A stretch of 64,000 nt of DNA from an uncultured virus (IMG/VR IMGVR_UViG_3300048930_001385) (lineage: Duplodnaviria; Heunggongvirae; Uroviricota; Caudoviricetes): IMG/VR virus record IMGVR_UViG_3300048930_001385. The stretch is one strand, 5' to 3'. The notes under the pieces are model-generated. The model saw only the letters and a list, made by a program, of their open reading frames with translations. It did not search any database and was not told where the DNA came from. Positions within the stretch are counted from its first letter, which is position 1; every line of letters starts with the position of its first letter. A program made the translations under genes and the position numbers. Below, one piece after another: positions 4,935-21,476 of this stretch.

Positions 4935-5720
4935 TCACGAGTATATAAATTCCCGAGAATCCGACTCTATTAAGTGCCACGGCGGCTGCTCAAAGCGTCC
5001 CTCATGAACACGGTGATGAAATACATCCTCGGCAGTCATCGCACTGAGCGTGGTAAGCTGCACTCCCTCGGGGCTGTGCTCTACCCCGTGCTCGTAGTAC
5101 AGCGCTCGGGTGCAGTTGCCATGCTCGTCCCACTCTTGGTGTGCGGGCCCCTCATGGATAGGCCGATGACGCTTGCCAGCAATGCAATACTTCATGAGCG
5201 CGAGCTGACCATTCGGGTGCCACCGCTCCTGGGCAGGCCCTTCGCTCGGATCGCGGCTCAGGGTCATGAGTATATTCTTGTAGCTGATGCTGATGATCTG
5301 TTCGTCCGGTGAAAACACGGCCCTACACATCGGCCCCGGTCCATCCCAGATTCGGACGGTGTTGCCGTTCTCTGTATATTGGCGATGGACAAGGATCCGG
5401 TGAACGGGGTGTAGTTGATTGAGATGGTCAAGGTCGTGCTGGGTTTGGGAGAGGTCAGTGCCTCGGAAACTTGTCCAATCAATCCGGGCACTCGTCAAGT
5501 CGGCGCCGTCGAGCTTGGCCCCATCGAGCTTGGCTCCGCAAAGATTCGCGCCATATAGGTCAGCGCCGGTGAGATCAGCTCCCGTGAGATCCAGAGCCGA
5601 AAGGTCAGCGTGTACGAGGTCTCTCGGCCAGACGTAAGCCTGTCGCGCTTCCCCACTCCCTTCACGCCAGAGGCGGTGAAAGCTCACCGGGTCTAAGCGA
5701 GGGTGTGGAAGGATCGTCAT
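4935..5720 (-). CDS. pentapeptide-repeat plus HRxxGPA-repeat protein
   Basis: ADLSA LDLTG ADLTG ADLYG ANLCG; HRPIHEGPA; N-terminus shared with 62183-63319. Confidence 0.8.
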   Translation of the reverse strand: MTILPHPRLDPVSFHRLWREGSGEARQAYVWPRDLVHADLSALDLTGADLTGADLYGANLCGAKLDGAKLDGADLTSARIDWTSFRGTDLSQTQHDLDHLNQLHPVHRILVHRQYTENGNTVRIWDGPGPMCRAVFSPDEQIISISYKNILMTLSRDPSEGPAQERWHPNGQLALMKYCIAGKRHRPIHEGPAHQEWDEHGNCTRALYYEHGVEHSPEGVQLTTLSAMTAEDVFHHRVHEGRFEQPPWHLIESDSREFIYS

Positions 5721-5757
5721 AGTGATAGTATCGGCAGAGCGAACCTTTACTTGAGTA

Positions 5758-5839
5758 TGCGGATGGAGGGACTCGAACCCTCACATCTTGCGATACAGGA
5801 TCCTAAATCCTGCGCGTCTACCAATTCCGCCACATCCGC
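5758..5839 (-). tRNA. tRNA-Leu(TAG)
   Basis: GCGGATG acceptor, CAGGA-TTTAGGA-TCCTG anticodon arm, long variable arm, GTTCGAGTC; no encoded CCA. Confidence 0.95.
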
Positions 5840-5961
5840 TTGCCCTATTATTAACGGCACAAACACGCGAGACTAGAGGCCAATCTCTGGCCCTACTGGA
5901 ACTTCTTCTCCAGCAAGTATTTATTGAGGACAGGTAGTTGGCCTCTGGGACCTAGCCCCGC

Positions 5962-6207
5962 CTAGGCATCCCTGAGCGCTGCGGCGATGTGCTCGGCCAC
6001 GTGGGCATCGGCATCGGCCTGAGCGCTCTCACGGTTGGCATCGGCCTGCCCGCTGTTAAGGTGCTTGCCCTTACCCTCGCCCTTGAAACCACACGAGCAA
6101 GAAGCGTGGAAGCCCTCACCGTAACGAGCGCCACCCGGCGATGCCATGATTGCGGGACGAACGCGGTGGGCGGCGACAACCTCTGCGATTACTGCGATCT
6201 CGGTCAT
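5962..6207 (-). CDS. small CxCG...HxxxH putative metal-binding protein
   Basis: SCSCG, AHVAEH; related to 19964-20236 and 15282-15527. Confidence 0.7.
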   Translation of the reverse strand: MTEIAVIAEVVAAHRVRPAIMASPGGARYGEGFHASCSCGFKGEGKGKHLNSGQADANRESAQADADAHVAEHIAAALRDA

Positions 6208-6601
6208 GGTGGCATCTCCCGGTAAGATATCTACGTGTCAGGCTCTAGCCCTTGCCCTTGCCTAATATATATCGGCACGGCAAGTATTTTATTGAGGACA
6301 GATGATTGGCCTTCTGCCCCGTCGGAGATTAGGCTGTCAGCGGTGGCAATGCACGCAGGGCTTGTCGTCCTCTGTGGCCGGGCGATCAACACTCAACAGG
6401 AGGGACCCACAACGAGCCTTCCAGCTATTGGGCACAGGAGAGTCAGCAGGCTTGGCAGCGACATGTGCGACGGTGCCCGGGAGGGTCACGATGCGATCAC
6501 TAGCCTTGATATTCTGTTCTCTCCAAACTATTGGTATTCGCCCTTGCCTAGTATATATCGGCAGCGGGATGCGCTGCCAGGAGGCCAATGTCCTGACCGC
6601 C

Positions 6602-6802
6602 CTAATCCTGCCGCTTGTTCTGTCGCCAGCTGAAGCCGAATGCACCCGGCGCGTCAATGGTCGTCGTCTGACGGTTCCGGCCCCAAGTGCGACTGAAGGG
6701 ACCGAGGCGGAGCGTCCAGCTGACACCCGTCTTCGTGAAATTGACGTAGAACAGCCCGGGGATGATTGGGAAGCTCTTACGGAATCGGAGTCGGTACTTC
6801 AT
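6602..6802 (-). CDS. DUF4236-like protein
   Basis: RFRKSFPIIPG...NFTKTGVSW...G...PG.FGFSWR; paralogue at 19247. Confidence 0.75.
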   Translation of the reverse strand: MKYRLRFRKSFPIIPGLFYVNFTKTGVSWTLRLGPFSRTWGRNRQTTTIDAPGAFGFSWRQNKRQD

Positions 6803-6811
6803 GTTCTGACC

Positions 6812-6922
6812 TCAGTAGTTGGCGAGGTAGGCGGTGATCTCGCCCATGAGCCGGCGCATGAGGTCGTTGATGATTGCCTCCTGCTGCTGGGCCGTCATCG
6901 TGAAGCCAGTGAAATCAATCAT
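6812..6922 (-). CDS. 36-aa peptide, paralogue of 19772-19879
   Basis: MIDFTGFTMTAQQQEAIINDLMRRLMGEITAYLANY. Confidence 0.7.
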   Translation of the reverse strand: MIDFTGFTMTAQQQEAIINDLMRRLMGEITAYLANY

Positions 6923-7009
6923 CCTCGCGCCTTCCCTTGCTTTGCCGTAATATTATTATCGGCAACTAACGAGGAGACTGGAGGCCAAGTTGGTGGCCGA
7001 CCTATTCAA

Positions 7010-7083
7010 TCGGGCATGCAAGATTCGAACTTGCGACCCCTCGCTCCCAAAGCGAGTGCGCTACCAGACTGCGCCAATGCCCG
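7010..7083 (-). tRNA. tRNA-Pro(TGG)
   Basis: CGGGCAT acceptor, CTCGC-TTTGGGA-GCGAG, GTTCGAATC. Confidence 0.95.
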
Positions 7084-7214
7084 TGGTGTATCTACATAGA
7101 GTGTATCGGAACATCTACCGGATATCTTGAGGCCTTCGCATCGGCCGCTTGTGCTCTATTGACCTGAACGAGCACCTGGTACCAGCCACACGACCAGCCT
7201 TAGCCTCTGGTCCC

Positions 7215-7733
7215 TCAACCACTTCCTCCATTCTCCAACCACCACTCCCGTATTAGTCTTAGTTGAGCCCTTGTAAGCGGATTATTTTGATTGGGTGCAA
7301 ACACGTTCTGTCTGAGTTGCTTATTGTATTCATACAGCTCTTGCGGTGCATGGAGCAATCGCGTTCCGGGCAGGCGGTTCTCGTTATTATCAAGTTGAAC
7401 CGGAGCAAAGGTCCAGTCAACTTCGCCTGGCGCACACGCCTGTAGCTCGTAGAGAAGGATGTCGTATAGGTTCTCCGCGCAGCGCGTGCCGAGGCCAGTC
7501 ACCGATTCAAACTCAGCCTCTAGGATTGGGCGCAAGGGTAGAGTTAGCCCGTACCAATGAGATAGAGTGGGTTTGTAATGATGATCCTTCGAGTGAATCC
7601 ATATAGGAGGCTGAAGGGCACTGTAAAACCAGTCGGGCAGTGAGGTGAAGTTTTCACGGAGAGGATGTGGAAGGCTCTCCGTTACCGGCCCTTGTAGCCA
7701 TTGGATCAGCATCGAGCCCTTGTCAGTGGTCAC
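7215..7733 (-). CDS. HhH (PGxG...REWW) family protein
   Basis: LPHPLRE, SVTGLGTRCA, QLRLIREWW; start uncertain. Confidence 0.75.
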   Translation of the reverse strand: MTTDKGSMLIQWLQGPVTESLPHPLRENFTSLPDWFYSALQPPIWIHSKDHHYKPTLSHWYGLTLPLRPILEAEFESVTGLGTRCAENLYDILLYELQACAPGEVDWTFAPVQLDNNENRLPGTRLLHAPQELYEYNKQLRQNVFAPNQNNPLTRAQLRLIREWWLENGGSG

Positions 7734-8133
7734 ACCAACCCCCGTTTTTGATCCACCACTCCCGCACCAGCCGAAGCTGAGCACGGGTCAGGGCCCGATA
7801 CTCACGGCCACGAAAGATCTTGACAGTGTTGCCGACATTCATATCCTTAACCCAGTCTTGCAGGTGTGCCAATGCTCGCTCAGGTTCATGGATTAGCATG
7901 TGACCGGGCAACTGGTTAACCAGGATGTCTGCTTTAATAAGGATTGCGACCTGGCCTGCAGCGGCGGGTCCTAGGCCCGGGGCTGATTGGAACAACTCAC
8001 TGAGTAGGTCTGCAAGACCTTGAGGGTGCAGAAAAGTATATTGCTCTAACCACACAGAAGTAATAGTCTCGCGAAGTGGCAGGGGAAAGCTCTCAATCGA
8101 TTCATCCCACTCTTTAGCCGGTATCCTACTCAT
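7723..8133 (-). CDS. HhH (PGxG...REWW) family protein
   Basis: FPLPLRE, SAPGLGPAAA, HEPER, QLRLVREWW; TGCTAGACT -10 upstream. Confidence 0.8.
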   Translation of the reverse strand: MSRIPAKEWDESIESFPLPLRETITSVWLEQYTFLHPQGLADLLSELFQSAPGLGPAAAGQVAILIKADILVNQLPGHMLIHEPERALAHLQDWVKDMNVGNTVKIFRGREYRALTRAQLRLVREWWIKNGGWCDH

Positions 8134-8250
8134 CCTGTCCTAGTCTAGCACGCTCTGCCCTATCCACCATGGACGGAATACTCAGTCTGAGCAGGCCGGT
8201 CTTGACCAAACTCTGTGATTAAGCTCTCCGCAGCCTGTTGGCAAGCCGAT

Positions 8251-8826
8251 TCATTGCTCACGGTTAAGCCACCTTTGCCTCTCCCTGGCCTGGCGTGTAA
8301 GCTTTTGGATCATCTGGCCCTGCGTGGCCATGTAAGTCTTGTCTAGAGAGCTCCACTTACCACTCTTCATATATAGGGGCACCGCGACCTTGTTGAGGAT
8401 AATGTGATATGGCGAGAAAGCGATGCTCTCTGTGCCCTGGTGATGCCAATGGCTGACATTTGCAAACTCACCTGGCTCCATCGCCCGAATGCGTTCTACC
8501 ATTAATCCAATTGTTCTAATTTCAGCTGCCGCATCACGATAGTAGCCAGGCCATGCCTCGTAGTAGACCGCATCAATCATGTCGCCGTCCCTGTTCCAAT
8601 ATGAGCGAGCGGGCCCCTCGTCTACACGACGACTCAACTTGAATCCACCGCTAGCTGGGTAAGAGTGAGACCTCAGGCTATACTGCTCGGTTTCCAACGA
8701 CTGATCATCTTGGTGGTAGCGGCACTTGATCTCGTAATCGCCGTCATGGATAAGGAGTAGCTCACCCCTCTGTTCGCGCACGATACCGTGCTTCCAGCGA
8801 TCCCTGTCCTCATCAAACGTTCTCAT
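8251..8826 (-). CDS. hypothetical protein, paralogue of 25919-26500
   Basis: EGPA, YYE.WPGYY.DAA.EI, SPYH, VPLYMK shared. Confidence 0.8.
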   Translation of the reverse strand: MRTFDEDRDRWKHGIVREQRGELLLIHDGDYEIKCRYHQDDQSLETEQYSLRSHSYPASGGFKLSRRVDEGPARSYWNRDGDMIDAVYYEAWPGYYRDAAAEIRTIGLMVERIRAMEPGEFANVSHWHHQGTESIAFSPYHIILNKVAVPLYMKSGKWSSLDKTYMATQGQMIQKLTRQARERQRWLNREQ

Positions 8827-8829
8827 CGG

Positions 8830-8949
8830 CTACCTTGTAATCCCTCTGGCGTCGTCTTCAGCCTTGTTATAAGGCATCCGCTCTCGTAGAGCCAGAGGTG
8901 TGCTAGGATAGTAATCCGTTGTTATCCAGGTGTAATACTCCTCGAGCAT
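8830..8949 (-). pseudogene. N-terminal fragment of the HhH family
   Basis: MLEEYYTWITTDYYPSTPLALRERMP...* resembles the N-terminus of 27493-27960. Confidence 0.55.
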
Positions 8950-8996
8950 GTACTCATTGTAGCACACGGCCCCAGCTAATCTTTAATTGCCACCTG

Positions 8997-9818
8997 TCAA
9001 CAGATCTGGGCTGCCTGCCGACGGCTTAGCTCTCGCTGTCGTAATCGTATCTGCCGGGTAAGGTGTGCGAGCATATCTTGATGTCGCTTGACACCGTTCC
9101 AAGCAAGGCGACTATAATCAGAAGCGATGATTACAGGCACATGTCGTCCATCATTGTATGATAGACACTCAGGAGTCAGCGCCCAGTCAGTGCCAAGATA
9201 AACCCAGGTATATACTACCTCTGGATCAAGCGCTGCAGCATATTGTTCACGAGCAGCGATTAACAGATGAGTTTGCTCCACAATCTGGTCAGTGGTCCAG
9301 GCGCTTAGGTCTCGCGGCCTTTTTCCGTTCTGACGATACTCTGCTTCAACAACGCGCTTGGTGCCGTCAGCCAGGTATGCTATGTATGCCGGTCCTTCCT
9401 TGTAAGGTCGATGTTCTACTCCTTCCCGCATCCACTTTAACTTGATCGGGGTCTCCTGATGATAATATGTCTCAGCAGGCCCATCTTCGCGGTGTATCAA
9501 CCCTCGCTGAAGGTAGCGCTCCACTTTTAGCTCACCGTTCTGATCCCAAGAGACGAAGGCAGGTCCCACATCGCGGTGGTTTAAGCCATCAACATAGTAT
9601 GAAACTACTGATTGAACACCAGTGGAGTACCAAGACGTGTAAGCTGGGCCATCGGTGCAGTGAAAGAGCATATCCGAGTTGCCCAGGATCTCAACAGAAA
9701 GGGCCCCGTTTTCATGGTAAGACCGATACCGGCAGCTGCCATCCGGCAGCCAATGGATCGTTTTGGTAGCGCCGAACCCGGGGCTGCCATCGAGGAGGCT
9801 TTTGATACTAGCTGTCAC
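8997..9818 (-). CDS. HRxDGPA-repeat (MORN/YwqK-like) protein, paralogue of 26505-27323
   Basis: HCTDGPA, HRDVGPA, HREDGPA, HRPYKEGPA; C-terminal LAHLTRQIRLRQ. Confidence 0.8.
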   Translation of the reverse strand: MTASIKSLLDGSPGFGATKTIHWLPDGSCRYRSYHENGALSVEILGNSDMLFHCTDGPAYTSWYSTGVQSVVSYYVDGLNHRDVGPAFVSWDQNGELKVERYLQRGLIHREDGPAETYYHQETPIKLKWMREGVEHRPYKEGPAYIAYLADGTKRVVEAEYRQNGKRPRDLSAWTTDQIVEQTHLLIAAREQYAAALDPEVVYTWVYLGTDWALTPECLSYNDGRHVPVIIASDYSRLAWNGVKRHQDMLAHLTRQIRLRQRELSRRQAAQIC

Positions 9819-9838
9819 TCTCTTAGTCTAGCACGATC

Positions 9839-10258
9839 TTAACTGGTCTCACGTACCCACCACTCACGGAGGGCTTGAATAGCTTGCCGAGAGGGCGGCT
9901 GCGAATCTTTTCCATCGTAGAGCAGCAGGTTCTTTCTCATATTGAGCCCGATATGATTCTTGAATACCTCGGCATGGTTCATGATGATTTCATCGGGGTA
10001 CATACCCGTCTCCTCCATTACCTCAACTATGACCCTGCGCAGATCGTAAGCCCAAGCGTACCCGATGCCATCAATCTCGAGGATGGCGAGGTACAGCGCA
10101 GTGAGGAAGTAACCGTCGTAGAGTATGCGACGGCGGAGCTGAGCGGCATCATCAACACCAGCATAGCGTGAATAATCAAGGGGCAAGAGCATTCTGCTAA
10201 TCGAGGGTGGGAGCTGCATGCTCTCATACCACTCCTGAATTTCATTCAAACTACTCAC
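9839..10258 (-). CDS. HhH (PGxG...REWW) family protein
   Basis: LPPSISR, EIDGIGYAWA, PPSRQAIQALREWW. Confidence 0.8.
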   Translation of the reverse strand: MSSLNEIQEWYESMQLPPSISRMLLPLDYSRYAGVDDAAQLRRRILYDGYFLTALYLAILEIDGIGYAWAYDLRRVIVEVMEETGMYPDEIIMNHAEVFKNHIGLNMRKNLLLYDGKDSQPPSRQAIQALREWWVRETS

Positions 10259-10721
10259 CCTCCAACTCCTCGATCCACCACTCGCGAAGAGCGATAACGT
10301 TCTTGCGACTGAGTGCGGATCGATGCCTACCCCGCACCTCTTCCTGAGATTCTGTCAACAGCAGACCAGGATGGTTCAGTAGAACGTCCTTCGGGGTCGC
10401 TGGGGATGATGCCAACATTTGATCACATAAAAGCAAGGCGCCCAGTCTGGACCTCTTGATTCCAAACCCTGGGACCCTCTGAAGGCTCAGCGCTAAGGGG
10501 TGACGGAGCTCTCCTAGGGCTTGTTGCATAATGAAGGAGCGACAGACCGATGGGAACAGCTCTTGCGAGCCCACTCGGGAGTTGTGAGCGAGGATGGTTG
10601 TTTCTCTCTGTAGCTGATCATCAGTGTATCGGCGTAATCGTGAGCGCACACCCGAGGGCAAGCTCTGGTAGAGCGGGCCCCAGCACCACTCGTAATACTC
10701 CCTCACCTCTGCATCGGTCAT
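10251..10721 (-). CDS. HhH (PGxG...REWW) family protein
   Basis: LPSGVR, RVPGFGIKRS, VIALREWW. Confidence 0.8.
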   Translation of the reverse strand: MTDAEVREYYEWCWGPLYQSLPSGVRSRLRRYTDDQLQRETTILAHNSRVGSQELFPSVCRSFIMQQALGELRHPLALSLQRVPGFGIKRSRLGALLLCDQMLASSPATPKDVLLNHPGLLLTESQEEVRGRHRSALSRKNVIALREWWIEELEGE

Positions 10722-10741
10722 GGGCACGTATCCGCGCGGTC

Positions 10742-11197
10742 TCACAGTCGATCTCGCTCCCACTCGCTCTCCCACCATTCACGCACCGCCTGAACTATAC
10801 GCCAGGGCGTGCGCGCGTCGCTGTAAGGCCGATGTCCATTGACCAGCTCTTCTGAGTGCTTATCTAAAACCTGATCGACGCTGAGTGCAAAGTTGGCCAT
10901 AAGCATTGTTATGTGCCGCGCTAAAACACGAGAGCGCCTATAACCAACCCCTGGCACCTCTTGAAGGCGCGCCTTAAGTAAATTATTAAGACCACTATTA
11001 TTAAGAGCAGACCTTCGTACCATATAAGGCGAAGTGGAGTAATCATAGCCAACAGACTGGACTATCGACATGCTCTCCCGTATTGACGGGGGCAAAGGAA
11101 TCGTGTTGATCCACTCGCAAGCAAGCTCAGGCGTCCACTGAAGGCTGCGATCTGTCCAGCTGCGACTAAAGCCTTTGTTCTCATCGGACGGGCTCAT
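10742..11197 (-). CDS. HhH (PGxG...REWW) family protein
   Basis: LPPSIRE, QEVPGVGYRRS, VQAVREWW; TGTCATACT -10 upstream. Confidence 0.8.
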   Translation of the reverse strand: MSPSDENKGFSRSWTDRSLQWTPELACEWINTIPLPPSIRESMSIVQSVGYDYSTSPYMVRRSALNNSGLNNLLKARLQEVPGVGYRRSRVLARHITMLMANFALSVDQVLDKHSEELVNGHRPYSDARTPWRIVQAVREWWESEWERDRL

Positions 11198-11267
11198 GTG
11201 CTGAGTATGACATGGCCCTGGCAAGTGCGCTAGTCTCCGATGTACATGCCACCCTCGGAGGCATTAG

Positions 11268-11597
11268 TCAAGCATATCGCGCCCGACGCTCGGATCGCTT
11301 GACAAGGTACGCGCGGGTGAGGTCATCGTCCCTGTCTCGCATGGGCAGAGAAAGATTACTATCGAGCTCACTTACCATGTCGCTGAGAACTGCATAGTGC
11401 CGCGCGACGTGCACGACCTTGCTGTAGTGAGTAAGCTGCCATTCAAGGTCATAGACCTGCTGGAGTAGGTGATCCTTCTCAGCCCGCAACACCATGTTCT
11501 CACGCTGGATACACTCAATGCTGCGCTCGCCAGGAGTTGATCCACACCCGTAGCCCGTGGCCGTCTTGTCACTCACGCAGAAAGGGCAATAGTCCAT
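11268..11597 (-). CDS. hypothetical protein (CxxC, coiled coil)
   Basis: ORF behind an element copy with RBS. Confidence 0.65.
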   Translation of the reverse strand: MDYCPFCVSDKTATGYGCGSTPGERSIECIQRENMVLRAEKDHLLQQVYDLEWQLTHYSKVVHVARHYAVLSDMVSELDSNLSLPMRDRDDDLTRAYLVKRSERRARYA

Positions 11598-11698
11598 GGC
11601 AGCTTCTCCGTATCTGATGAGGTCTGTCTTAATATTATCGGCAACCGCTCCGGTCTCCGGAGGTCAAGTGTTTGGCCATACTGTAAAATTGCCGTGTG

Positions 11699-12091
11699 TC
11701 AACAATTCTGCAGCGACTCGATTACCCTATCCATGAGGACACGGGCGCGCCGAGAGGGCGGCTGGCCAGGAATTGGTGTAGAGAGCCCCTTGCCCTTGCC
11801 GGCGGTGTAATCGACCGCGCGCCGAAACTGCTCAGCAGTTAGATCAATGACCTCGCCATCCGGGCCCTGGATATACCAGTGGCTCTCACCCTCGTGATTG
11901 ACCTGCATCGTCTTGTAACGGCTCTGCTTGCTGCCCCCAAGAAGCTGCCACAGGCACTCGCTAGCGACATAGCAGTGACCGACGAAACGGTTCTTGCGCG
12001 GTCGGTCACGGTACTCTTTCTTCAACAGGTCATCACTCAGGTTATCACGGATGAGCTCGGCAAGAACAGGTATGTCGTCGGTAGTAAACAT
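11699..12091 (-). CDS. putative papain/transglutaminase-fold protein
   Basis: GHCYVASE...SHWY...VIDLTAEQF (Cys-His-Asp order). Confidence 0.6.
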   Translation of the reverse strand: MFTTDDIPVLAELIRDNLSDDLLKKEYRDRPRKNRFVGHCYVASECLWQLLGGSKQSRYKTMQVNHEGESHWYIQGPDGEVIDLTAEQFRRAVDYTAGKGKGLSTPIPGQPPSRRARVLMDRVIESLQNC

Positions 12092-12153
12092 TCTAGTGTT
12101 ATTATCGGCACCACTCACTAGTTCAAGAGGACAATCACCTGGCCCACACAGAA

Positions 12154-12181
12154 GGGAGGGCCAGCCTAAGCCAGCCCTCCC
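12154..12181 (-). terminator. GC-rich hairpin downstream of 12209-12628
   Basis: GGGAGGG(C)...(G)CCCTCCC stem, T-rich tail on the minus strand; related copies at 40021, 52954, 15623, 23309. Confidence 0.65.
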
Positions 12182-12208
12182 CGGTGTCTAGTTTGATCCG
12201 TCCGTGGG

Positions 12209-12628
12209 TCAGAGCGAGTATGCCCCGTCCACAGCAGTCACCCCAGCGCGCTTGAGGGCGGCGCGGACGGCGTCGGCCTTGTCCTTCGCAGTGAACGCAG
12301 TCAGTTCACGCATCGTGATCTGCGCCGCGATCTGCTTGCTCGTCAGCGGCACACGAGCGGCCTTGAGAACCGCGAGAGCTGCCTCGCCGGTCTTTGAGAC
12401 CTTGCCACCGTCATGACGCGGGCGACCCCGGCCCACCACCGGGAGGCCAGCAGCGATCTTTGCCGCGTTCAGCGAACCAAAGGCCGTGATGTACGCCTGA
12501 GCCGAGGGGAGGCCACTACCCTTGACATTGATGTGCTTCGTGCCGATATTCTCACCCTCGTGAGCGGCCGCGAGCCACTGAAGGTTGAGGACCAGCATCT
12601 CATTCGTGAACTTGCGCTTGCGAGTCAT
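12209..12628 (-). CDS. basic DNA-binding-like protein (homing-endonuclease-associated repeat-like plus AT-hook), copy 1
   Basis: LPSAQAYITAFGSLNAAKIAAGL, GRGRPR. Confidence 0.75.
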   Translation of the reverse strand: MTRKRKFTNEMLVLNLQWLAAAHEGENIGTKHINVKGSGLPSAQAYITAFGSLNAAKIAAGLPVVGRGRPRHDGGKVSKTGEAALAVLKAARVPLTSKQIAAQITMRELTAFTAKDKADAVRAALKRAGVTAVDGAYSL

Positions 12629-12728
12629 CGTGTTCTCCTTGTGTGGCGGGAGGCCCATCCTCCCTTGCCCTATTGTTATCGGCCCCGTATGAATTTATCT
12701 TGAGGCCAGGTGTATGGCCCATCCTGCA

Positions 12729-12971
12729 TTAGTGGATACTGACAAGCGTCCACTCGACCTGCTGACCATCGCGAGTAGTGAGCTCCTCGGCAGCTAGATC
12801 AGTTTGCTTGCCGTCTACGGTATAGACCCAAGCGGTATCGGGGCCAGCGGTGCGGCCGTCGATAGCAACCACTTTCTCTCCGAGTCCTGAGTGAACCTCT
12901 GTTTGCACTGTGCTGCTCTCGTGGAGAAGCTCGAGGACCGTCTTGCCATCTTGCCCGGTGTACTTGGTCAT
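12729..12971 (-). CDS. DUF4430-like beta-grasp protein
   Basis: GKTVLELL...VVAIDG...WVYTVDG...A.E....DGQQVEW. Confidence 0.7.
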   Translation of the reverse strand: MTKYTGQDGKTVLELLHESSTVQTEVHSGLGEKVVAIDGRTAGPDTAWVYTVDGKQTDLAAEELTTRDGQQVEWTLVSIH

Positions 12972-13102
12972 TCGCTGACCTTTCATGCAATGGGCGGGTC
13001 ATTTACCCGCCGCGCCAAGGTTTCCCTTGCCCTACTATTATCGGCCCCATGTGAATTTATCTTGAGGCCAGGTGGATGGCCTCCTGGCAGTTAAGTGATT
13101 CT

Positions 13103-13381
13103 TTAAGCGGTGACAGCACGAATAGTAGTTGTTTCAACGTAGACGGTGCACTTGCCATCGAACGTGACGATGTACTGGTACCGAGAGGGCTTGACCTCTA
13201 GCTTATTCCATGCCTTATGGCACTCAGTAGGAAGGCTACGATCCGTTGTCGTCAAGATTGACGAATCGCTGGCGGGCAGAACGGCTGTCACACGGTCGGC
13301 TGGAGAGAACACCACTGAAAAGCTCCAGAAAGTTGCAACCACCAGTCCGGTGAGCACGAGGTATCCAAGAAGCTGCTTCAT
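13103..13381 (-). CDS. secreted or membrane-anchored hypothetical protein
   Basis: N-terminal hydrophobic helix. Confidence 0.65.
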   Translation of the reverse strand: MKQLLGYLVLTGLVVATFWSFSVVFSPADRVTAVLPASDSSILTTTDRSLPTECHKAWNKLEVKPSRYQYIVTFDGKCTVYVETTTIRAVTA

Positions 13382-13520
13382 GACTTTACCCCTCCGTCGA
13401 TTACTCTACTACTATCGGCAGCAAACAACTTATCCAAGAGGACATCTATTGGCCGCCAGGGCAAGTGCGTGAGTCCATAAGTTGGTTGTGAGTGCACTAA
13501 AGTGGCGAGGCCACACTAAC

Positions 13521-13823
13521 CTACTGGTTGTCGCCGCGATGTCGCAATCGTTCAACGGTCAGAAGAAACTTCACGGCGCTAGAGAATATAAAAAGAAAGC
13601 CTAATACGACGAAGAGAGTATGTTCACGAGCCTGATAGGTGTAAATGGTCGCGCCTGTCAACATTGCCAGGGCCCCCATGACCTGCCAATGCTCATCACT
13701 AAAGTAGTGAATCGTCACTTTGCGCATATGAGTCTTGACGCGATCCCAGACGGGATCAATATAACGTATACCTATGTAGGTCAAAGATGCGATCAGTGCG
13801 ATAGCGATAACCCAAGACAACAT
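13521..13823 (-). CDS. membrane protein
   Basis: three hydrophobic segments. Confidence 0.7.
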   Translation of the reverse strand: MLSWVIAIALIASLTYIGIRYIDPVWDRVKTHMRKVTIHYFSDEHWQVMGALAMLTGATIYTYQAREHTLFVVLGFLFIFSSAVKFLLTVERLRHRGDNQ

Positions 13824-13976
13824 GGTGTGTCCTCAATTTATTTTTGCCCTTGCCCTATCACTATCGGTCCATTGTGAATTTATCTTGAGGCCAGCTGGAC
13901 GGCCTCCTGGCAACTACATGCATAGACCAAGATCTAGGCCGTATCGCGCACTGGCAACTAAGCGCCGCTGAGAAGC

Positions 13977-14237
13977 CTAGTAGGCGTAGAGTGCGCCGAC
14001 CCTGAGTGCCTCGGCGATGTTCGACTCTGCATTGAGGAACGTCACATCGTCGGGATATGCGGTCTCAGTGTCGTCGATCTCATGCAGGATGTTCCACCGC
14101 TCTGCGGACTCTGCATCGTACCAGAAATGCTTACTAGAGCGCATAAGGCCGCCGGCGAGAGCGACGAAGCACTCTGCTCCACCGTCCTCAGCTGCGAGGG
14201 TCTTGAGCTCGTCCAGTGTGTTAATCTTCGTTGCCAT
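13977..14237 (-). CDS. hypothetical protein, paralogue of 58599-58871
   Basis: CF.ALAGGL.RSSKH...W.I.HEIDD...EALRVGAL. Confidence 0.8.
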   Translation of the reverse strand: MATKINTLDELKTLAAEDGGAECFVALAGGLMRSSKHFWYDAESAERWNILHEIDDTETAYPDDVTFLNAESNIAEALRVGALYAY

Positions 14238-14312
14238 GATCCGTTCTCCTTTGCCGTCTATTATATTATCGGCATCGACGGCGGTATCCTAAAGGCCAAA
14301 CTCTGGCCTCAA

Positions 14313-14385
14313 TGCCCTCGGCAGGATTCGAACCTGCGACACCAGGTTTAGGAAACCTGTGCTCTATCCCCTGAGCTACGAGGGC
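14313..14385 (-). tRNA. tRNA-Arg(CCT)
   Basis: GCCCTCG acceptor, CAGGT-TTCCTAA-ACCTG, GTTCGAATC. Confidence 0.95.
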
Positions 14386-14394
14386 GGGAGAGAT

Positions 14395-14544
14395 CTAAAC
14401 GGCGGGCTTGCCCATCACGTAGAGGTTGTACGGGCCATCGGGTCCGCTGGTGGTGCGAATGATCTTGACGAGCACCCAACCGCTCTTAAGCAGTTCGTTT
14501 GCGGCGTCAACGCCACGGGCTTCTGCGAGTTCGGTATAGTTCAT
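14395..14544 (-). CDS. 49-aa leaderless hypothetical protein
   Basis: MNYTELAEARGVDAANELLKSGWVLV...; CGATA-N8-ATG. Confidence 0.65.
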   Translation of the reverse strand: MNYTELAEARGVDAANELLKSGWVLVKIIRTTSGPDGPYNLYVMGKPAV

Positions 14545-14670
14545 GATCCAAGTATCGGCATCGGGGGGAATTATCTTAAGGCCGAGGCAGTGGCCTAGTC
14601 GGATTGTGGAGTGGGATTATGAATAATTACCACACCACGTGTTTATGTGTGGGGGAGATCTATCGCCTGT

Positions 14671-14871
14671 TCAGGCTCGGCGCGGAGCGTGAGCGTAGAG
14701 ACGGGTGGGGTCAAGCACACGGTACGCGGCTGCCTCACGTGCGAGCGAACGGGCCTTGCGCACGTCAGTGGCGGTGACGGTGAAGGTGCCGACACTCTCG
14801 CCGTGCTTGGTGTCAGTCACGAGCACGTTGTAGGTCTTGCCGCCCTTGCGCTGATTCGCAAACTTTGCCAT
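14671..14871 (-). CDS. hypothetical protein, paralogue of 4625-4825
   Basis: near-identical protein, hairpin leader. Confidence 0.8.
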   Translation of the reverse strand: MAKFANQRKGGKTYNVLVTDTKHGESVGTFTVTATDVRKARSLAREAAAYRVLDPTRLYAHAPRRA

Positions 14872-14967
14872 GAGAACCTCCTCAGCGGGAGGCCCTTCCT
14901 CCCTTGTCCTATATGTATCGGCACGCTTCACCCAAACCTTTAGCAGAAATAACAAATGGGTTCTTTG

Positions 14968-15201
14968 TCAGTCAATCATCGGGGTGTCTTTGCCGTCGTT
15001 GTGCATCGGTGTCTCGCGCAGCATTCGTTCGGGACAGCCCTGCTCAATCTGTTTGTCGTCTCGAATGAGATCATATAGCGGCTGCTTGTCACGCTTGCGA
15101 ATCGTCTTGGCAGTACGAACGACGAAAGGGTCAATGAAACCCAGCTGGAAAACGCGGTCACCTACTGCAAACTTGTGCTGAATGTCGGAAGCTGACTGCA
15201 T
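14968..15201 (-). CDS. small SH3-like hypothetical protein
   Basis: KFAVGDRV motif. Confidence 0.6.
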   Translation of the reverse strand: MQSASDIQHKFAVGDRVFQLGFIDPFVVRTAKTIRKRDKQPLYDLIRDDKQIEQGCPERMLRETPMHNDGKDTPMID

Positions 15202-15281
15202 TTGTATCTCTTTCTTGTGTGGTGACCCTTACCCTATATGTATCGGCACGATTCGCCAAACCTTGAGCGGTAACTTGCGAA

Positions 15282-15527
15282 TTAAATAACAGAATCAGAC
15301 TGAGCTGACCGAGAATAATGCTCGTTCTCCCATGCGTGTTCAGCATCGGTGCACTCTTCGTACGCGACATCCTTGCCCGGATGCCAACCGCAGGTGCAGC
15401 GGACCGTGTACATAAGGCGACCAGGAAGAAGCGATCCGTGCAGACTGGTCGTTTCGACGATGGCAGTATCCTGCATGGTACAAGCTCGCTGAGTGCTCTT
15501 ATTAGCCTTTGCATTGCGCTTGAACAT
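15282..15527 (-). CDS. small CxCG...HxxxxH protein
   Basis: VRCTCGW, EHAWENEH. Confidence 0.6.
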   Translation of the reverse strand: MFKRNAKANKSTQRACTMQDTAIVETTSLHGSLLPGRLMYTVRCTCGWHPGKDVAYEECTDAEHAWENEHYSRSAQSDSVI

Positions 15528-15679
15528 TATAGCTCCTTTATATATTCCGTTACTGCGTCGTGCCCTATATGTATCGGCTAGGTATGATAATATCTTGAGG
15601 CCAGGTGCGTGGCCTTCGAATAGGGAAGAGCCAGCCGAAGCCAGCCCTTCCCAGTGTCTTACGTCTTACGTCTTCCGCG

Positions 15680-15931
15680 CTACTTCGCCGTGTAGCCGAT
15701 CAGCTTCGCGTCGGCGTTGAAGAAGCGGGCGCCCTGCTCGCGGATCGTCACCTGCTGGTCACCCGTGAGCATGTCCTCACCTCGGAACACGATCTGGCGC
15801 TTCTCGCCATCGACCATCACGACCGGCTTGATTCCAGCCTTGACAACCTTGACGATGCGGCTCTGGCCGGCACGCTTGCCCTTGCCAGTGATCTTGAGCG
15901 AGTAGACGTTGCCGATCTTGACCTTGCTCAT
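15680..15931 (-). CDS. basic hypothetical protein
   Basis: hairpin leader, RBS, terminator at 15623-15652. Confidence 0.7.
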   Translation of the reverse strand: MSKVKIGNVYSLKITGKGKRAGQSRIVKVVKAGIKPVVMVDGEKRQIVFRGEDMLTGDQQVTIREQGARFFNADAKLIGYTAK

Positions 15932-16058
15932 GTGCATCTCCTTGGGTTCTGTCTGGGAGACCCTTTCTCCCTTGCCCCATATGTATCGGCAATGTATTAA
16001 CTTAACGAGAGGACAAATGGGTGGCCTACGCTCTAACGGCGACAGGACCAGGCGATGC

Positions 16059-16364
16059 TCAGCGGGCGAGCTCTCGCTGATCACGTTCAGCCAGTGAGAG
16101 CTGCATGCTGTGCTGGATGGCATTCATCAACACGCGTCCACGCTTGGACCGCAGCATCAGCACCTGCGGCCAGACTAGCAGGTCTCCGTTTACCCCCGGA
16201 TGCCCGAAGCCGATACGATCCCAGTCAGTAAGTAGCGTCATACGACGATCACAGTCGTTGCAGACGATCTCGCCCACTGCCGCGAGACTCCAGCGGATCG
16301 TGCGCGATTCGGTCAGCTCAATCAACTCTGCGATTGCCTTCTCGTCCCTGGTAAAAGGTCGCAT
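16059..16364 (-). CDS. hypothetical protein
   Basis: ORF between element copies. Confidence 0.6.
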   Translation of the reverse strand: MRPFTRDEKAIAELIELTESRTIRWSLAAVGEIVCNDCDRRMTLLTDWDRIGFGHPGVNGDLLVWPQVLMLRSKRGRVLMNAIQHSMQLSLAERDQRELAR

Positions 16365-16486
16365 TGCTTGCTCCCGAATCGTGGTAGTGAACAACAGTTT
16401 CCTGGCTGATAACATCATCGGCTGAAGGCGGAGATGTCTTGAGGACGGGCGAGTGGCCTTTATTGGGTCGGGCCACATCTCACCTC

Positions 16487-16792
16487 TTAGAAGTGCGGGT
16501 CTCTGTAGTAGCGGCGGACACCGACGCTGACAACGGTGCCGCGCTTGCCGCCGACCATCCAGCGCTGGCGGCTCTCATTCCAGCGAGCGACAATGGTGCT
16601 GCCCTCGGTGTCAGGCAGGAACACGCAATCCTGCTCTTCGATGTAGCTGCCGCGAGTGACCATGACCTCGTCGGCCTGGATCGTGATCTGCTTGCCGGAG
16701 GTAGACACGGCGATCACCGTGTAGGGGTTACGATCCGAACCGTACCCGAACGTTGCGCCCTCACCGATCTTAACCTGCTCTGCAATCATCAT
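16487..16792 (-). CDS. hypothetical phage protein
   Basis: GEGAT...SDRNPYTVI...G.RRYYRDPHF; remnant copy at 29751. Confidence 0.75.
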   Translation of the reverse strand: MMIAEQVKIGEGATFGYGSDRNPYTVIAVSTSGKQITIQADEVMVTRGSYIEEQDCVFLPDTEGSTIVARWNESRQRWMVGGKRGTVVSVGVRRYYRDPHF

Positions 16793-17012
16793 TCGCTCCT
16801 GCCGCCAGAAGAGAGGTTGCTCCTCCCTTGCCCTGTATGTATCGGCACGGAATTAATTTATCTGGAGGACATTCGCGTGGCCCATGATCAGCGCCAGTGC
16901 GGGCCACCATTAATTACGCAACACTCTGGATAGCGCGATGAATGAGCTAATCGTACTATTCGTCGTCACCCTGGCCTAGAGTTACTCAGACTCGAGAGTG
17001 GAAGAATGATCT

Positions 17013-17201
17013 TCACTTACTCCGCAAGGTGAGGTCATGCCGCTTACCGCATGGACAGTTGAAATCGGTAGTGATCTCAACCTCACTATCAAACTCCCAG
17101 TCGGTGACGGAAGCATACAGGTACAGATCGTAAAAGTCAATGACGACCGTGCCGGCGACCGGGCACTCAACTGTAAGACTCTTGATGGTGATGTCCGCCA
17201 T
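17013..17201 (-). CDS. small Cys-containing protein, similar to 28379-28612
   Basis: VECP...CPCG. Confidence 0.6.
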   Translation of the reverse strand: MADITIKSLTVECPVAGTVVIDFYDLYLYASVTDWEFDSEVEITTDFNCPCGKRHDLTLRSK

Positions 17202-17334
17202 GATCGCTACCGCCTTTACTGGGTAAGAGTCCGTCTCTCCCTTGCCCTATATGTATCGGCACGTAATGAACTTATCAGGAGGACAGTCTATTGGCCGCCA
17301 GGGTAATACATGATTAGGTCAGTTGAGCGGCCAC

Positions 17335-17775
17335 TTACACCGAGAAATGCTTCTTAATTGCCTCGCGCTCCGCCTGTGCCCGCCACCCTCGTGCGAGCAT
17401 GAAGCGACCCAGCCACGTTCGCTCGCTCTCGATGCGTGAATATTCTCGCATAACATCCACGGCAAGCGTATAGAAAGGTCGTGGCATGCGAAAGTTCGGA
17501 ACAAATGCATACCGAGAGAATCGATAGGTGAGAAAGTTGCCCGGGCCAGTATCCTCGCTGACAGGAACAGGGATCTTGACATACAGCGGGTCAAGAAAGG
17601 GCATATCGTCCTCGAATCGCATAACCTCTTCGCCAGCCTTGGAAACGATAATCAGCGAGCAGCGAACACGATGGATGACTTCGCAATCGTACTCACCCAC
17701 AGTGAACGAGTAATCACTGCGGCGGCGCATCTTGAGATTGAAGGGATCTGTTTCGTGACGAATCTTGAAGCGCAT
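17335..17775 (-). CDS. hypothetical protein
   Basis: element, hairpin leader and AGGAG RBS. Confidence 0.7.
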   Translation of the reverse strand: MRFKIRHETDPFNLKMRRRSDYSFTVGEYDCEVIHRVRCSLIIVSKAGEEVMRFEDDMPFLDPLYVKIPVPVSEDTGPGNFLTYRFSRYAFVPNFRMPRPFYTLAVDVMREYSRIESERTWLGRFMLARGWRAQAEREAIKKHFSV

Positions 17776-17867
17776 GAACGACTCCTTCTGGCAGGGAGGC
17801 CGCTCTCCCCTTGCCCTATATATCGGCTACAAAAGAAATTATCTTGAGGCCAAATGCCTGACCCCGT

Positions 17868-18137
17868 CTATGCGCGGGGCTGGCCCTGCGGCTCATTGAA
17901 CCGGCGCATGAACTTTGCGATGCGCTGTACGATCTTACCCTGTCGTCGCGGAATCGGATTGACGACGAAATTGAGGTGCGGGTTTTCTTCGTTCAGGCGC
18001 TTTGCCCATGCCTCGGCGATGTGAGAGAAGGGAGAACTGCCGTAGTACATGGTCACGCCGTTACCGATGTTGACGACCTCGTACTCATCGACGTCTCGGA
18101 TGTGAATGTATTCGCGTTCCGCTGCATCCTTGATCAT
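17868..18137 (-). CDS. hypothetical protein
   Basis: element, hairpin leader and AGGAG RBS. Confidence 0.7.
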   Translation of the reverse strand: MIKDAAEREYIHIRDVDEYEVVNIGNGVTMYYGSSPFSHIAEAWAKRLNEENPHLNFVVNPIPRRQGKIVQRIAKFMRRFNEPQGQPRA

Positions 18138-18439
18138 CGTTCACTCCTTCTGGCGGGGAGGCCATTCCTCCCTTGCCCTATATGTATCGGCTGGGAAGTA
18201 ACTTACCAAGAGGACGGACTATTGGCCCGATTTATGACAGGTACACGGCGGTGGTTACGAGACCGATGATGACGAGGGTACACACTATCCAGCAAAACCA
18301 GATCAGGCTATCCGGGCAATCGTCGGGCTCTGGCTCTACAGGGGGCTGCACGCCTTGCTCGGACGAGAGCACGTGCAGCGCAGCAATTTCGCTTACATCC
18401 ATATGATCACCTCATGCTACTACTCGGTTATTGTACACG

Positions 18440-18803
18440 TATCGGCAGGGAATGAAATTATCCGAAGGACAGGTGACTGGCCTGTCACTCCTTGCCGATA
18501 ACTTCGCACTTGCCCACGGGCGCCCAGACGTCGCCCTCACGACCGTGGACACCGTCGCGCATACCCACGTACTCGCGCCCGTCCTTTGTCGTCTTGAGCT
18601 GACGGGGCCACAGCCGCGCCACCGGGCCACTTGCGATTGCAGTCTCTCCGACGACCCAGACCTCACCGTTGTACTTGACGATGTCGCTGGCCTGCACGCT
18701 GTTGCTGGATCGGATCATGGTGAGCTCCTGCTCGTTCATCGGGTTCCTTGCCCTACTGTTATCGGCAGGGAATGAAATTATCCGGAGGACAGGTGACTGG
18801 CCT
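18440..18803. repeat. 44-bp near-perfect direct repeats (18440-18483, 18760-18803) flanking one ORF
   Basis: one mismatch in 44 bp. Confidence 0.9.
18485..18739 (-). CDS. hypothetical protein
   Basis: lies between the 44-bp repeats. Confidence 0.7.
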   Translation of the reverse strand: MNEQELTMIRSSNSVQASDIVKYNGEVWVVGETAIASGPVARLWPRQLKTTKDGREYVGMRDGVHGREGDVWAPVGKCEVIGKE

Positions 18804-18930
18804 AGCGATCCTTCGTTGCGATACGGGCGATGATCATGCAGATGATTATTGCCACCCACGGAGCTGCAATGACCATCATGACCTGTATACTGTTCATTTG
18901 TTCAACCAGCATAGCTAGCTCCTTAAGCAC

Positions 18931-19170
18931 TCAAGCGACTTTGACAAACAGCTGCGCCGGGTGCACCCCGAACGTATTCAGCTGCAGCCTTCCATCGCTG
19001 CTGATGGTCAGAAACTCTTGCTCGTCACCCTCGTACACGAACGGCCCCTGCCCGGCAACGCACCGAACGGTATCGCCAGTACGAAGCAGCATCTTGCCAT
19101 CTGCGCCTTGCACGGTAACTCCGTTCGGATAGACCGTCTCGCCGTGCTCGCGTGCCTTGATTTCGTTCAT
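18931..19170 (-). CDS. hypothetical protein
   Basis: GGAGG RBS behind an element copy. Confidence 0.65.
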   Translation of the reverse strand: MNEIKAREHGETVYPNGVTVQGADGKMLLRTGDTVRCVAGQGPFVYEGDEQEFLTISSDGRLQLNTFGVHPAQLFVKVA

Positions 19171-19246
19171 GCCGAACCTCCACAGTTTCCCTTGCCCTAA
19201 CTGTATCGGCCGGGAAAGAAAATATGGTAAGGACAAATAGCTGACC

Positions 19247-19444
19247 CTAGCTATTGTCAGTCTTGCGCCAGCTGAATCCGAACCGGCCGGGAGCGTCAAT
19301 GGTTGTCGTCGTTCCCCTGCTTCCCCACGTTCGACTGAACGGACCCAGACGCAAAGTCCAGCTCACGCCGGTCTTTGTGAAATTGACATAAAAGACCCGA
19401 GGAATGATCGGAAAGCTCTTGCGAAATCGCATCCTGTAGCGCAT
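19247..19444 (-). CDS. DUF4236-like protein
   Basis: paralogue of 6602-6802. Confidence 0.75.
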   Translation of the reverse strand: MRYRMRFRKSFPIIPRVFYVNFTKTGVSWTLRLGPFSRTWGSRGTTTTIDAPGRFGFSWRKTDNS

Positions 19445-19522
19445 GGCGTGCCCTTCTCAAGCCTCTTTGCATTAATGTTATCGGCAGGTACAGAAGCGAT
19501 ACGAGGACAAATACCTGGCCGG

Positions 19523-19762
19523 TCAGACGATCTCAGTCTCCAGCGACCGCTCGTACTGGACTTGAAGGCTCACCGTCAGCGACGGGAAGTGAATGTAACG
19601 GCGCTGCATGCGCTCCAGAGCGTCCTTGACTTCGGCCTCGGTGCCGCGAAGGCAGAGGACCGATCCACGTCGCCCGACTACGAGCACGGGCATGCGCTCA
19701 ATCATTGCCCATGCTGCCATGGCTCGCTCGGTGGTCTGGAGATCAAACGCGACCTGCATCAT
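19523..19762 (-). CDS. hypothetical protein
   Basis: AGGAG RBS. Confidence 0.6.
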   Translation of the reverse strand: MMQVAFDLQTTERAMAAWAMIERMPVLVVGRRGSVLCLRGTEAEVKDALERMQRRYIHFPSLTVSLQVQYERSLETEIV

Positions 19763-19771
19763 GGCGATCTC

Positions 19772-19879
19772 CTAGTAGTTGCCGAGGAACAGAGCGATCT
19801 CGGACATGAGCTCTTGCATGAGCACGCGGATCATGGCATCCTCTTGCTCGCGAGTCATCGTGAAGCCGCTGAAGTCCAT
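19772..19879 (-). CDS. 35-aa peptide, paralogue of 6812-6922
   Basis: MDFSGFTMTREQEDAMIRVLMQELMSEIALFLGNY. Confidence 0.7.
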   Translation of the reverse strand: MDFSGFTMTREQEDAMIRVLMQELMSEIALFLGNY

Positions 19880-19963
19880 GTCGCTCTCCTTGATCGCTTG
19901 CCCTTGCCCTAGTATTATCGGCAGGTATCAAAATAAAGAGAGGACAATGGTGTGGCCCCCTAG

Positions 19964-20236
19964 TTATTCCCAAACGACCCGGAGCTTGTCCTCGTCCACT
20001 TGCTCCAGCCCATGCACCTCGGCAACGTGTTCCGCGTGCTCGTCCCTGATGAAATCGGTATCGTGTGCGCTCATCGTGTGTTGTCCACACGAGCACCAGG
20101 AGCGATGCACCGGGCCGTCGCAGCAAGACACGTCGCCACAGCCGCCGCTACTCTCAGGCGCTTCGACAGTGAGTACATGGGAGACGTAGTCAACGACTGG
20201 TCCAGTTGCAACTACTTCATTTGAGATCACGGTCAT
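19964..20236 (-). CDS. small CxCG...HxxxH protein
   Basis: WCSCG, EHVAEVH. Confidence 0.65.
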   Translation of the reverse strand: MTVISNEVVATGPVVDYVSHVLTVEAPESSGGCGDVSCCDGPVHRSWCSCGQHTMSAHDTDFIRDEHAEHVAEVHGLEQVDEDKLRVVWE

Positions 20237-20262
20237 GGCTGTCTCCTTTGAAAAGCTTACTT

Positions 20263-21410: not shown

Positions 21411-21476
21411 TGCAACCCCTTGTTTAGAACCTATCTCTTTTATCGGCAGGTACGGCGCTTAACCTAAGGCCAACTT

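Follow-up and report, generated by a model that had tools for sequence, protein, structure and literature searches.

Minus-strand promoters throughout a 64-kb stretch of uncultured viral DNA (the window, meaning the whole stretch that was analysed) carry a 16-bp dyad of the form GGCCA-N6-TGKCC directly against the -35 box. From sequence and computational analysis, the dyad is read with moderate confidence as an activator-type site with the geometry of Mor/C sites; together with the sigma-28-type promoter to which it is fused, it recurs about 100 times. One DNA-binding protein would probably switch on about 100 small genes.

The dyad and its junction with the promoter core

The inverted repeat GG[CA]CA-N5/6-TG[GT]CC occurs 82 times in the window, compared with 0.6 +/- 0.8 copies expected from 200 dinucleotide-preserving shuffles (maximum 4). 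The repeat claimed by the first-pass annotation is therefore real. Its reported copy (Table 1) is exact, and the further copies quoted near 3219 and 2784 and at 34461 match their description. The spacer is six bases long in 67 matches and five in 15, and the remaining lengths from 0 to 15 together account for five. An exact CCGATA hexamer lies 20 or 21 nucleotides downstream of the dyad in 62 of the 82 copies. By reading, the other 20 comprise 15 dyads with a one-mismatch -10, two with a two-mismatch -10, and three extra upstream copies without a -10 of their own. Searched as one composite pattern, GGCCA-N6-TGKCCTC-N18/19-CCGATA is found 46 times, on the minus strand in every case, and not once in 100 shuffles.

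In every case the proximal arm directly precedes the TC of the -35 box, with no shift of even one base. Nearly all copies adjoin a minus-strand -35 of the sigma-28 type, which bears out the claim that the dyad is fused to the -35 of most element copies. Lack of enrichment of the distal arm had been named beforehand as grounds for dropping the claim. Among 80 sites set by an exact proximal arm and an exact CCGATA alone, the distal arm matches at all five positions in 62, at four in 13, and at three or fewer in five, and the claim survives. Copies with the proximal arm alone lie at 63641, 41872, 37883, 24733, and 21446 (minus strand).

A catalogue of promoter-like elements in the window has about 112 entries, all on the minus strand, or approximately one per 570 bp. 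Both arms match at at least four of five positions in 107 entries, and about four entries look spurious by eye (-10 at 46248, 17294, 11187, and 60616). The earlier figure of more than 100 genes under one switch is about right as a number for the window, while the single switch stays a proposal.

Position 3 of the arms is variable. It had been described as mirrored, with C or A in one arm answered by G or T in the other. The variation is present, but the mirroring is lopsided: the distal arm has C in 77 of the 82 copies and A in five, and the proximal arm has G (TGGCC) in 36 and T (TGTCC) in 46. Paired across the dyad, the combinations are C/T in 44 copies, C/G in 33, A/G in three, and A/T in two. 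The spacer is free in sequence, as claimed, with 77 distinct sequences among the 82 copies. Its sole constrained position is the last base: of the 67 six-base spacers, 64 end in a pyrimidine. Neither symmetry beyond the 5-bp arms nor an A/T-rich UP-like sequence upstream of the distal arm was found.

Three promoters have a second dyad 22-51 nucleotides upstream of the promoter-linked one (56037/55998, 41512/41490, and 5943/5892, minus strand). The second dyad at 56037/55998 is an exact duplication of about 20 nucleotides.

The full repeated element on the minus strand reads GGCCA-N6-TGKCC, continues without a gap into TCAAGATAAATTCAT, and then has gCCGATA further downstream, often followed by (c/a)atatAGGGCAAGGGAGG. 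Its core is TCAAG-N15/16-CCGATA. The CCGATA hexamer occurs 111 times on the minus strand and 23 times on the plus strand, and GCCGATAA occurs 37 and four times, respectively. G precedes the hexamer in 72% of the 111 minus-strand copies, and none of the 23 plus-strand hexamers has a -35 match. The sigma-28 consensus is TAAAGTTT-n11-GCCGATAA in Table 1 of PMC2859248. In the window, T[CA]AAG sits 20 or 21 nucleotides before CCGATA, which fits this consensus with n of 11 or 12. The sigma-28 -35 element TAAAG(T/G)TT, 11 nucleotides before GCCGATAA, is matched, with a degenerate box in many dyad copies. The -35/-10 pair agrees with the sigma-28 class (FliA/SigD/WhiG), apart from the second -35 base, which is usually C in the window. 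Among 99 copies the boxes include TCAAG (29), TCTAG (10), TCTTG (7), and TCCTG (6), confirming the report of poor -35 boxes beside the palindrome. Sigma-70-like promoters are at chance level in the 10-30 kb part of the window. A sigma-28-type core is well supported by these matches.

Start codons pile up at one distance from the hexamer. Twenty-one lie exactly 8 nucleotides past CCGATA, and distances of 7, 9, and 10 nucleotides have none; 20 of the 21 open ORFs of 40 codons or more. We read these ORFs as leaderless mRNAs; examples have their -10 at 57504, 56814, 50061, 39975, 34674, 30623, 28626, 14558, 5734, and 2763 (minus strand). The spike would therefore place +1 at the ninth nucleotide past CCGATA. 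Given that start, the hexamer would span -14 to -9, the T of the -35 box would fall at -35 or -34, and the proximal and distal arms would occupy -40 to -36 and -51 to -47. The dyad would then extend from -51 to -36. Of 94 copies, 51 have their predicted centre at -43.5, 25 have it at -42.5, and 16 have it at either -43 or -42, the remaining two having odd spacers. The idea that the dyad spacer and the -35/-10 spacer compensate for each other was rejected, as the counts of 51, 25, 8, and 8 show no pattern.

Promoters without a leaderless start carry a short conserved leader. The leader GCAAGGGAGG-N5-CCTCCC folds as a hairpin within the first ~21 nucleotides of the predicted transcript and precedes a separate AGGAG ribosome site. 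By reading, the hairpin is present in about 12 leaders, among them those after the -10 at 4879, 14921, 16845, 18190, 24733, 40558, and 53485. It may stabilise the 5' end. Coordinates of the reported copy, the array, and the promoters lacking the palindrome or distal arm are given in Table 1.

Table 1. Features of the reported promoter copy, of the array, and of promoters lacking the palindrome or distal arm.
Feature	Position	Strand	Remark
Distal arm GGCCA	12715..12719	-	Exact copy; predicted -51 to -47
6-nt spacer tacacc	12709..12714	-	Free sequence
Proximal arm TGGCC	12704..12708	-	Predicted -40 to -36; adjoins -35 box
-35 box TCAAG	12699..12703	-	Matches TAAAG of TAAAGTTT-n11-GCCGATAA; 21 nt before CCGATA, 16 nt between
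-10 hexamer CCGATA within gGCCGATAa	12677..12682	-	Sequence match
Predicted transcript start	12668	-	Ninth nt past hexamer, from the leaderless-start spike
Leader hairpin GGGAGG-N5-CCTCCC in leader GCAAGGGAGG	12648..12664	-	Sequence
Downstream ORF	12209..12658	-	Likely start ATG at 12628 behind AAGGAG; product begins MTRKRK
Promoter array	102..63690	-	~112 copies
Palindrome-less promoter, consensus -35 CTAAAGGTTT	14916..14960 (-10 at 14921)	-	
Palindrome-less promoter, -35 CTCAAGGTTT	15241..15285 (-10 at 15246)	-	Paralogue of the 14921 copy
Leaderless palindrome-less promoter (CTCAAG)	5729..5775 (-10 at 5734)	-	Drives pentapeptide-repeat gene 4935-5720
Leaderless promoter without distal arm, -35 CTAAAGGTT	35075..35120 (-10 at 35080)	-	Drives DUF7717 gene 34755-35066
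tRNA genes behind dyad promoters	5758-5839, 7010-7083, 54994-55068	-	

Dyad presence, -35 quality, and the G/T arm variant

The palindrome-less copies that had been noted near 14917 and 15240 are real, and their -35 boxes, CTAAAGGTTT and CTCAAGGTTT, are near consensus. The first-pass annotation predicted from them that palindrome and -35 scores would be anticorrelated. The relationship was examined in 45 minus-strand exact CCGATA hexamers that are followed by a leaderless ATG or a AGGGCAAGG-type leader, a set in which neither the dyad nor the -35 was used for selection. A dyad was counted as present at nine or more of ten arm matches, and a perfect -35 was T[CA]AAG, which occurs at either allowed offset by chance in 0.7% of cases.

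The predicted anticorrelation holds. A perfect -35 is present in seven of the eight promoters without the dyad, the only eight on which the comparison rests, and in 10 of the 37 with it (Fisher p=0.0026, Spearman rho -0.40). It survives the collapse of paralogues into 29 clusters, where perfect boxes are found in 6/6 promoters without the dyad and 4/23 with it (median p=4e-4, worst 0.0026). These fractions give, in statistical form, the Mor/C-type trait of a -35 that is dispensable where the site is present; the box may be functionally dispensable there as well. Counting against compensation, the metagenomic relatives described below and the contig G001 mostly keep a good -35 in copies with the upstream element.

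The G/T choice in the proximal arm is coupled solely to the two A's of the -35 box, the only positions with a chi-square p<0.002 when positions -18 to +22 relative to the arm and -10 to +30 relative to the -10 are scanned. Both A's are present in 22 of 49 G-class copies and in eight of 45 T-class copies (p=0.007), and the mean -35 match is 4.13 in the G class and 3.22 in the T class (p=7e-6). In the TGTCC class, the two A's are close to random. Twelve promoters of this class are leaderless; without them their genes would be neither transcribed nor translated, and they must fire at the exact base. In the sigma-28 promoter aer of E. coli, replacing one such A of the -35 by T cuts activity from 223 to 26 units (Table 1 of PMC2859248). 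Something besides the -35 must therefore recruit polymerase to the TGTCC-class leaderless promoters that lack these A's, the dyad being the one further feature that is conserved.

Genomic context and relatives

The window holds approximately 100 small ORFs, nearly all on the minus strand, and four tRNA genes. Family matches are rare among the ORFs and comprise an RDF/VG64-like gene, a deoxynucleoside kinase, a GmrSD_C nuclease domain, pentapeptide-repeat proteins, and an AI-2E transporter on the plus strand. The AI-2E protein is recorded on a 552,685-bp contig, and for this reason we take the window to be a stretch of accessory genes from a huge uncultured phage; the alternative would be a large plasmid-like element. 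No close relatives were found in INPHARED, PLSDB, or IMG/VR. The INPHARED DNA search returned a tRNA match only and the PLSDB search no match, while INPHARED protein searches gave few distant homologues, in phages of Actinobacteria and Firmicutes, or none. The 186 kb of Microbacterium phage Pumpernickel contain no dyads.

Dyad promoters stand directly before three of the tRNA genes (-10 at 5857 for a tRNA-Leu, 7109 for a tRNA-Pro, and 55112 for a tRNA-Leu), so the predicted regulon would include tRNAs. Two plus-strand genes, the AI-2E transporter (51806-52954) and a pentapeptide protein (62183-63319), are without the element. Each has a TAGAAT or TATAAT-like hexamer 6 nucleotides before its ATG (51780-51808 and 62150-62185), and these may be leaderless starts from a housekeeping-type promoter.

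The ORF behind the reported copy has a weak HNH_repeat match (E=0.0057). It belongs to a paralogous family with products beginning M(T/A/P)RKRK and a weak HNH_repeat, whose members are 12209-12628, 40081-40500, and the ORF after the -10 at 53485 (minus strand). Each carries a near-identical promoter and leader, which indicates that the genes duplicate together with their promoters. A second family consists of small proteins of 66 and 78 amino acids, 41% identical over 39 residues (14671-14871 and 24463-24699, minus strand), and includes the ORF after the -10 at 4879. Two of its members lie behind promoters without a distal arm, and the family has no family match. Genes behind dyad-less promoters were considered as candidate regulators and rejected; they have no helix-turn-helix match, and the small paralogue family also occurs behind a dyad promoter.

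Three short metagenome contigs (L124, L174, and L234) together carry eight copies of the element with the same arms, junction, -10, and leader. None of the three has a protein in common with the window, and the recurrence of the layout on such unrelated contigs speaks for the activator reading. On L124, two dyad-less promoters (positions 1119 and 1521, minus strand) have the same -10 and leader and share the upstream sequence caactga.taag.gcgcgaagc.ttttggt, which may mark a second regulatory class. Pattern scans of IMG/VR returned 0, 3, and 20 single matches, a chance-like result, and the genome-contig scan gave single matches only, among the matches listed.

The unrelated viral IMG/VR contig G001 (41,932 bp, 68% GC) has six promoters with the same CTCAAG-N15/16-CCGATA core. 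Five of the six have the same type of leader together with a non-palindromic GTTGCC-N6-GGAGAC, placed 8 bp before CTCAAG. This sequence appears twice, as a direct repeat, between two divergent promoters of G001 (L265 7400-10300). The AGGGCAAGG leader is found both in the metagenome relatives and in G001. With the same core and a different upstream element on G001, the upstream site appears to be a module separate from the part read by sigma. The comparison suggests a modular arrangement of a common core and a lineage-specific upstream site.

The activator model and competing readings

In the proposed mechanism, a symmetric oligomer, either a dimer or a dimer of dimers, would bind GGCCA-N6-TGKCC. 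The bound protein would sit directly upstream of the -35 and aid binding of RNA polymerase, like Mor/C at Mu middle and late promoters, and it would make up for weak -35 boxes. The approximately 100 small-gene and tRNA promoters of the window, and probably many more on the 552-kb contig, would form one regulon. The first-pass annotation had proposed a dimeric activator that recruits a sigma28-like polymerase. The sigma-28-type promoter in that proposal is upheld by the consensus match and the 20 leaderless ORFs, and the activator is a candidate backed by statistics and geometry.

A base in one arm and its counterpart in the other are separated by 10 or 11 bp, approximately one helical turn of DNA, and this spacing fits two helix-turn-helix units on one face of the helix. 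A Mor/C-type site is defined as a 16-bp dyad of two 5-bp inverted repeats and a 6-bp spacer (PMC4390567), and Mu C binds a 16-bp imperfect dyad centred at -43.5 in late promoters that lack a typical -35 (PMC2582627). The Mu promoters Pm, Plys, PI, PP, and Pmom share with the window dyad the 5-6-5 geometry (67 of 82 copies have the six-base spacer), and their centre at -43.5 would also be the commonest one in the window if transcription begins at the predicted +1. Mu promoters responding to Mor or C pair a good -10 with a poor or absent -35 (PMC4390567 and PMC2582627). Mor/C tetramers contact alpha-CTD, sigma-70 region 4, and the beta flap-tip helix, according to a 2025 preprint (bioRxiv 10.1101/2025.05.02.651988).

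The two systems differ in several respects. Mu uses sigma-70, whereas the window core is of the sigma-28 type. Mu has one plus four such promoters, compared with about 100 in 64 kb here. The half-site sequence differs from that of Mu, and unlike Mu, 15 of the 82 window copies have a 5-bp spacer and many keep a usable -35. No Mor family (PF08765) gene was found among the approximately 255 window ORFs or on G001, a contig estimated to be 43% complete that also has no Sigma70_r2 match. Since most of the genome is unseen, the absent Mor gene lowers the chance that this is a Mor/C system, not the chance that it works like one. A scan of the approximately 255 window ORFs detected no domain of the sigma, helix-turn-helix, or Mor families, which leaves the proposed protein hypothetical and perhaps host-encoded.

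Direct action of a dimeric activator on sigma-28 holoenzyme is known from E. coli aer and trg, which PMC2859248 gives as the only sigma-28 promoters of that species found to be directly activated by CRP. At aer, CRP acts best from -49.5 and gives no sigma-28 activation from the class II position -41.5, according to the same paper. An activator near -43.5 on a sigma-28 promoter is therefore without tested precedent in that source (PMC2859248). The CRP site is also longer (22 bp) than the window dyad, which has 16 bp centred at about -43. A point of likeness is that aer has TAAAGATA where the commonest window form is TCAAGATA. No description of the element was found among the papers listed on phage sigma factors with inverted repeats, on actinophage promoters, or on FliA and huge phages. 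In a search on CCGATA-type phage promoters, the E. coli aer paper was the only relevant result. We read the composite element as a variant on activator-dependent phage promoters.

Two properties of the dyad count against an activator. The arms are unequal, with the distal arm nearly fixed as GGCCA (77/82) and the proximal arm divided 36:46 between G and T, and a one-base shift of the spacer, as in the 15 copies with N5, is unusual for a rigid dimer. The inequality of the arms would suit a reading in which there is no separate dimer. A specialised sigma, or a phage subunit bound to polymerase, would read TGKCCTC as an extended -35, a second contact would read GGCCA, and the symmetry would be incidental. 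TGKCC-TC..G is better conserved than the canonical -35 A's, and the G/T choice covaries only with these adjacent A's, which fits one reader touching both. However, sites with two perfect 5-bp inverted arms, one turn apart and with a free spacer between them, usually belong to a symmetric oligomer. The arm-less promoters at 14921, 15246, and 5734 keep the -10 (the first two also the leader) and look complete, which implies that the core works without the arms, and G001 joins the same core to a different upstream element. Direct reading by polymerase is considered unlikely, but together with pure repression it is one of the two serious competitors of the activator model.

The dyad could also be an operator bound at every promoter by a protein that only represses, for lysogeny or for temporal shut-off, in the way that phage repressors occupy multiple operators. 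Palindromic operators beside core promoters are common in phages, and a gene like that of a recombination directionality factor (RDF) at 23359-23907 hints at a temperate lifestyle. Actinophage repressors with many operator-like sites, such as the conserved inverted repeat operators of phiC31, offer a comparison that was not used as evidence. The site lies wholly upstream of the -35, at a predicted -51 to -36, which speaks against repression. Furthermore, dyad promoters tolerate -35 boxes that would be crippling for sigma-28, and in 12 cases a leaderless mRNA could come from no other promoter, so something must act positively there. We regard an exclusively repressing protein as improbable; one that both activates and represses was counted under the activator reading.

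Folding of the repeat was considered in the light of the PeSL elements of T4-type phages, which resemble the window in that a plastic region has a composite repeat ahead of almost all of its small orphan genes, a repeat that likely promotes cassette shuffling (PMC4122927). The dyad would then be part of a stem-loop or terminator combined with an early promoter, ending the upstream transcript and providing homology for cassette shuffling. The layout is similar to that of T4-type hyperplastic regions, where small orphan genes are flanked by a composite terminator/promoter motif (PMC4122927). The relatives have the promoter in common and not the cargo genes, the upstream ORF end, where found, is mostly within about 60 nucleotides of the dyad, and paralogous genes have near-identical promoters. 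PeSL is a composite terminator and promoter with a stem-loop (PMC4122927), whereas the window repeat is not a conserved stem and has no T-run after the dyad. The arms show no stem covariation, and the central mismatch C/T is the commonest pairing (44 of 82). Copies with a mismatch fold at -3.9 kcal/mol compared with -3.1 for shuffles, and only the 33 perfect-arm copies reach -9.7. Terminator-like sites number 12, with 13.5 expected, at 10-30 kb. Recombination between promoter repeats may occur, yet it leaves the dyad unexplained. An RNA or DNA hairpin is unlikely, and a PeSL-like role for the dyad very much so.

A site-specific recombinase core, with 5-bp arms around a 6-bp crossover region, had been offered by the first-pass annotation as its alternative and is scarcely credible: the array looks like a cassette set, and an inverted repeat with a 5/6-bp spacer is superficially like a tyrosine recombinase core, but tyrosine recombinases require matching crossover regions and the 77 different spacers among 82 copies therefore argue against a shared one, known recombinases have far longer arms than 5 bp, the register of the site with the -35 box is fixed to the single base, and no integrase or recombinase domain was found among the window ORFs. 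Two further candidates were rejected by reasoning. A sigma-54 promoter would have GG/GC at the right distance only in copies with N5 and proximal G, and its start would fall inside the -35. Mimicry of restriction sites (CCA-N6-TGG and GGCC-type sites) was rejected, as phages avoid, and do not enrich, such sites.

Beyond the activator model for the window, a wider proposal is tentative and, in our judgement, possible but doubtful. One small activator and an alternative sigma would together run most of the accessory genome of a phage of about 550 kb, consisting of hundreds of single-gene and often leaderless units, by means of one composite promoter with a sigma-28 core and a Mor/C-like 16-bp dyad at -43.5. 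The G/T choice would be a dial replacing the -35 A's, and relatives would keep the core and leader and swap the upstream site, as in G001 with GTTGCC-N6-GGAGAC. If the single-switch reading at about 550 kb is true, this would be the largest single-switch viral regulon described. If the activator model is true, the Mor/C style of activation, in which a bound protein replaces the -35, would extend from sigma-70 to a sigma-28-type holoenzyme.

The defined 16-bp site offers a bait for pull-down of the regulator, and the model predicts transcript starts to the base. Two natural allelic series are present, one with and without the dyad and one with G or T in the proximal arm. The compact unit of promoter and site could serve as a portable, switchable expression part. 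The sequence described here gives a testable model of how huge phages seen only in metagenomes may schedule hundreds of orphan genes.
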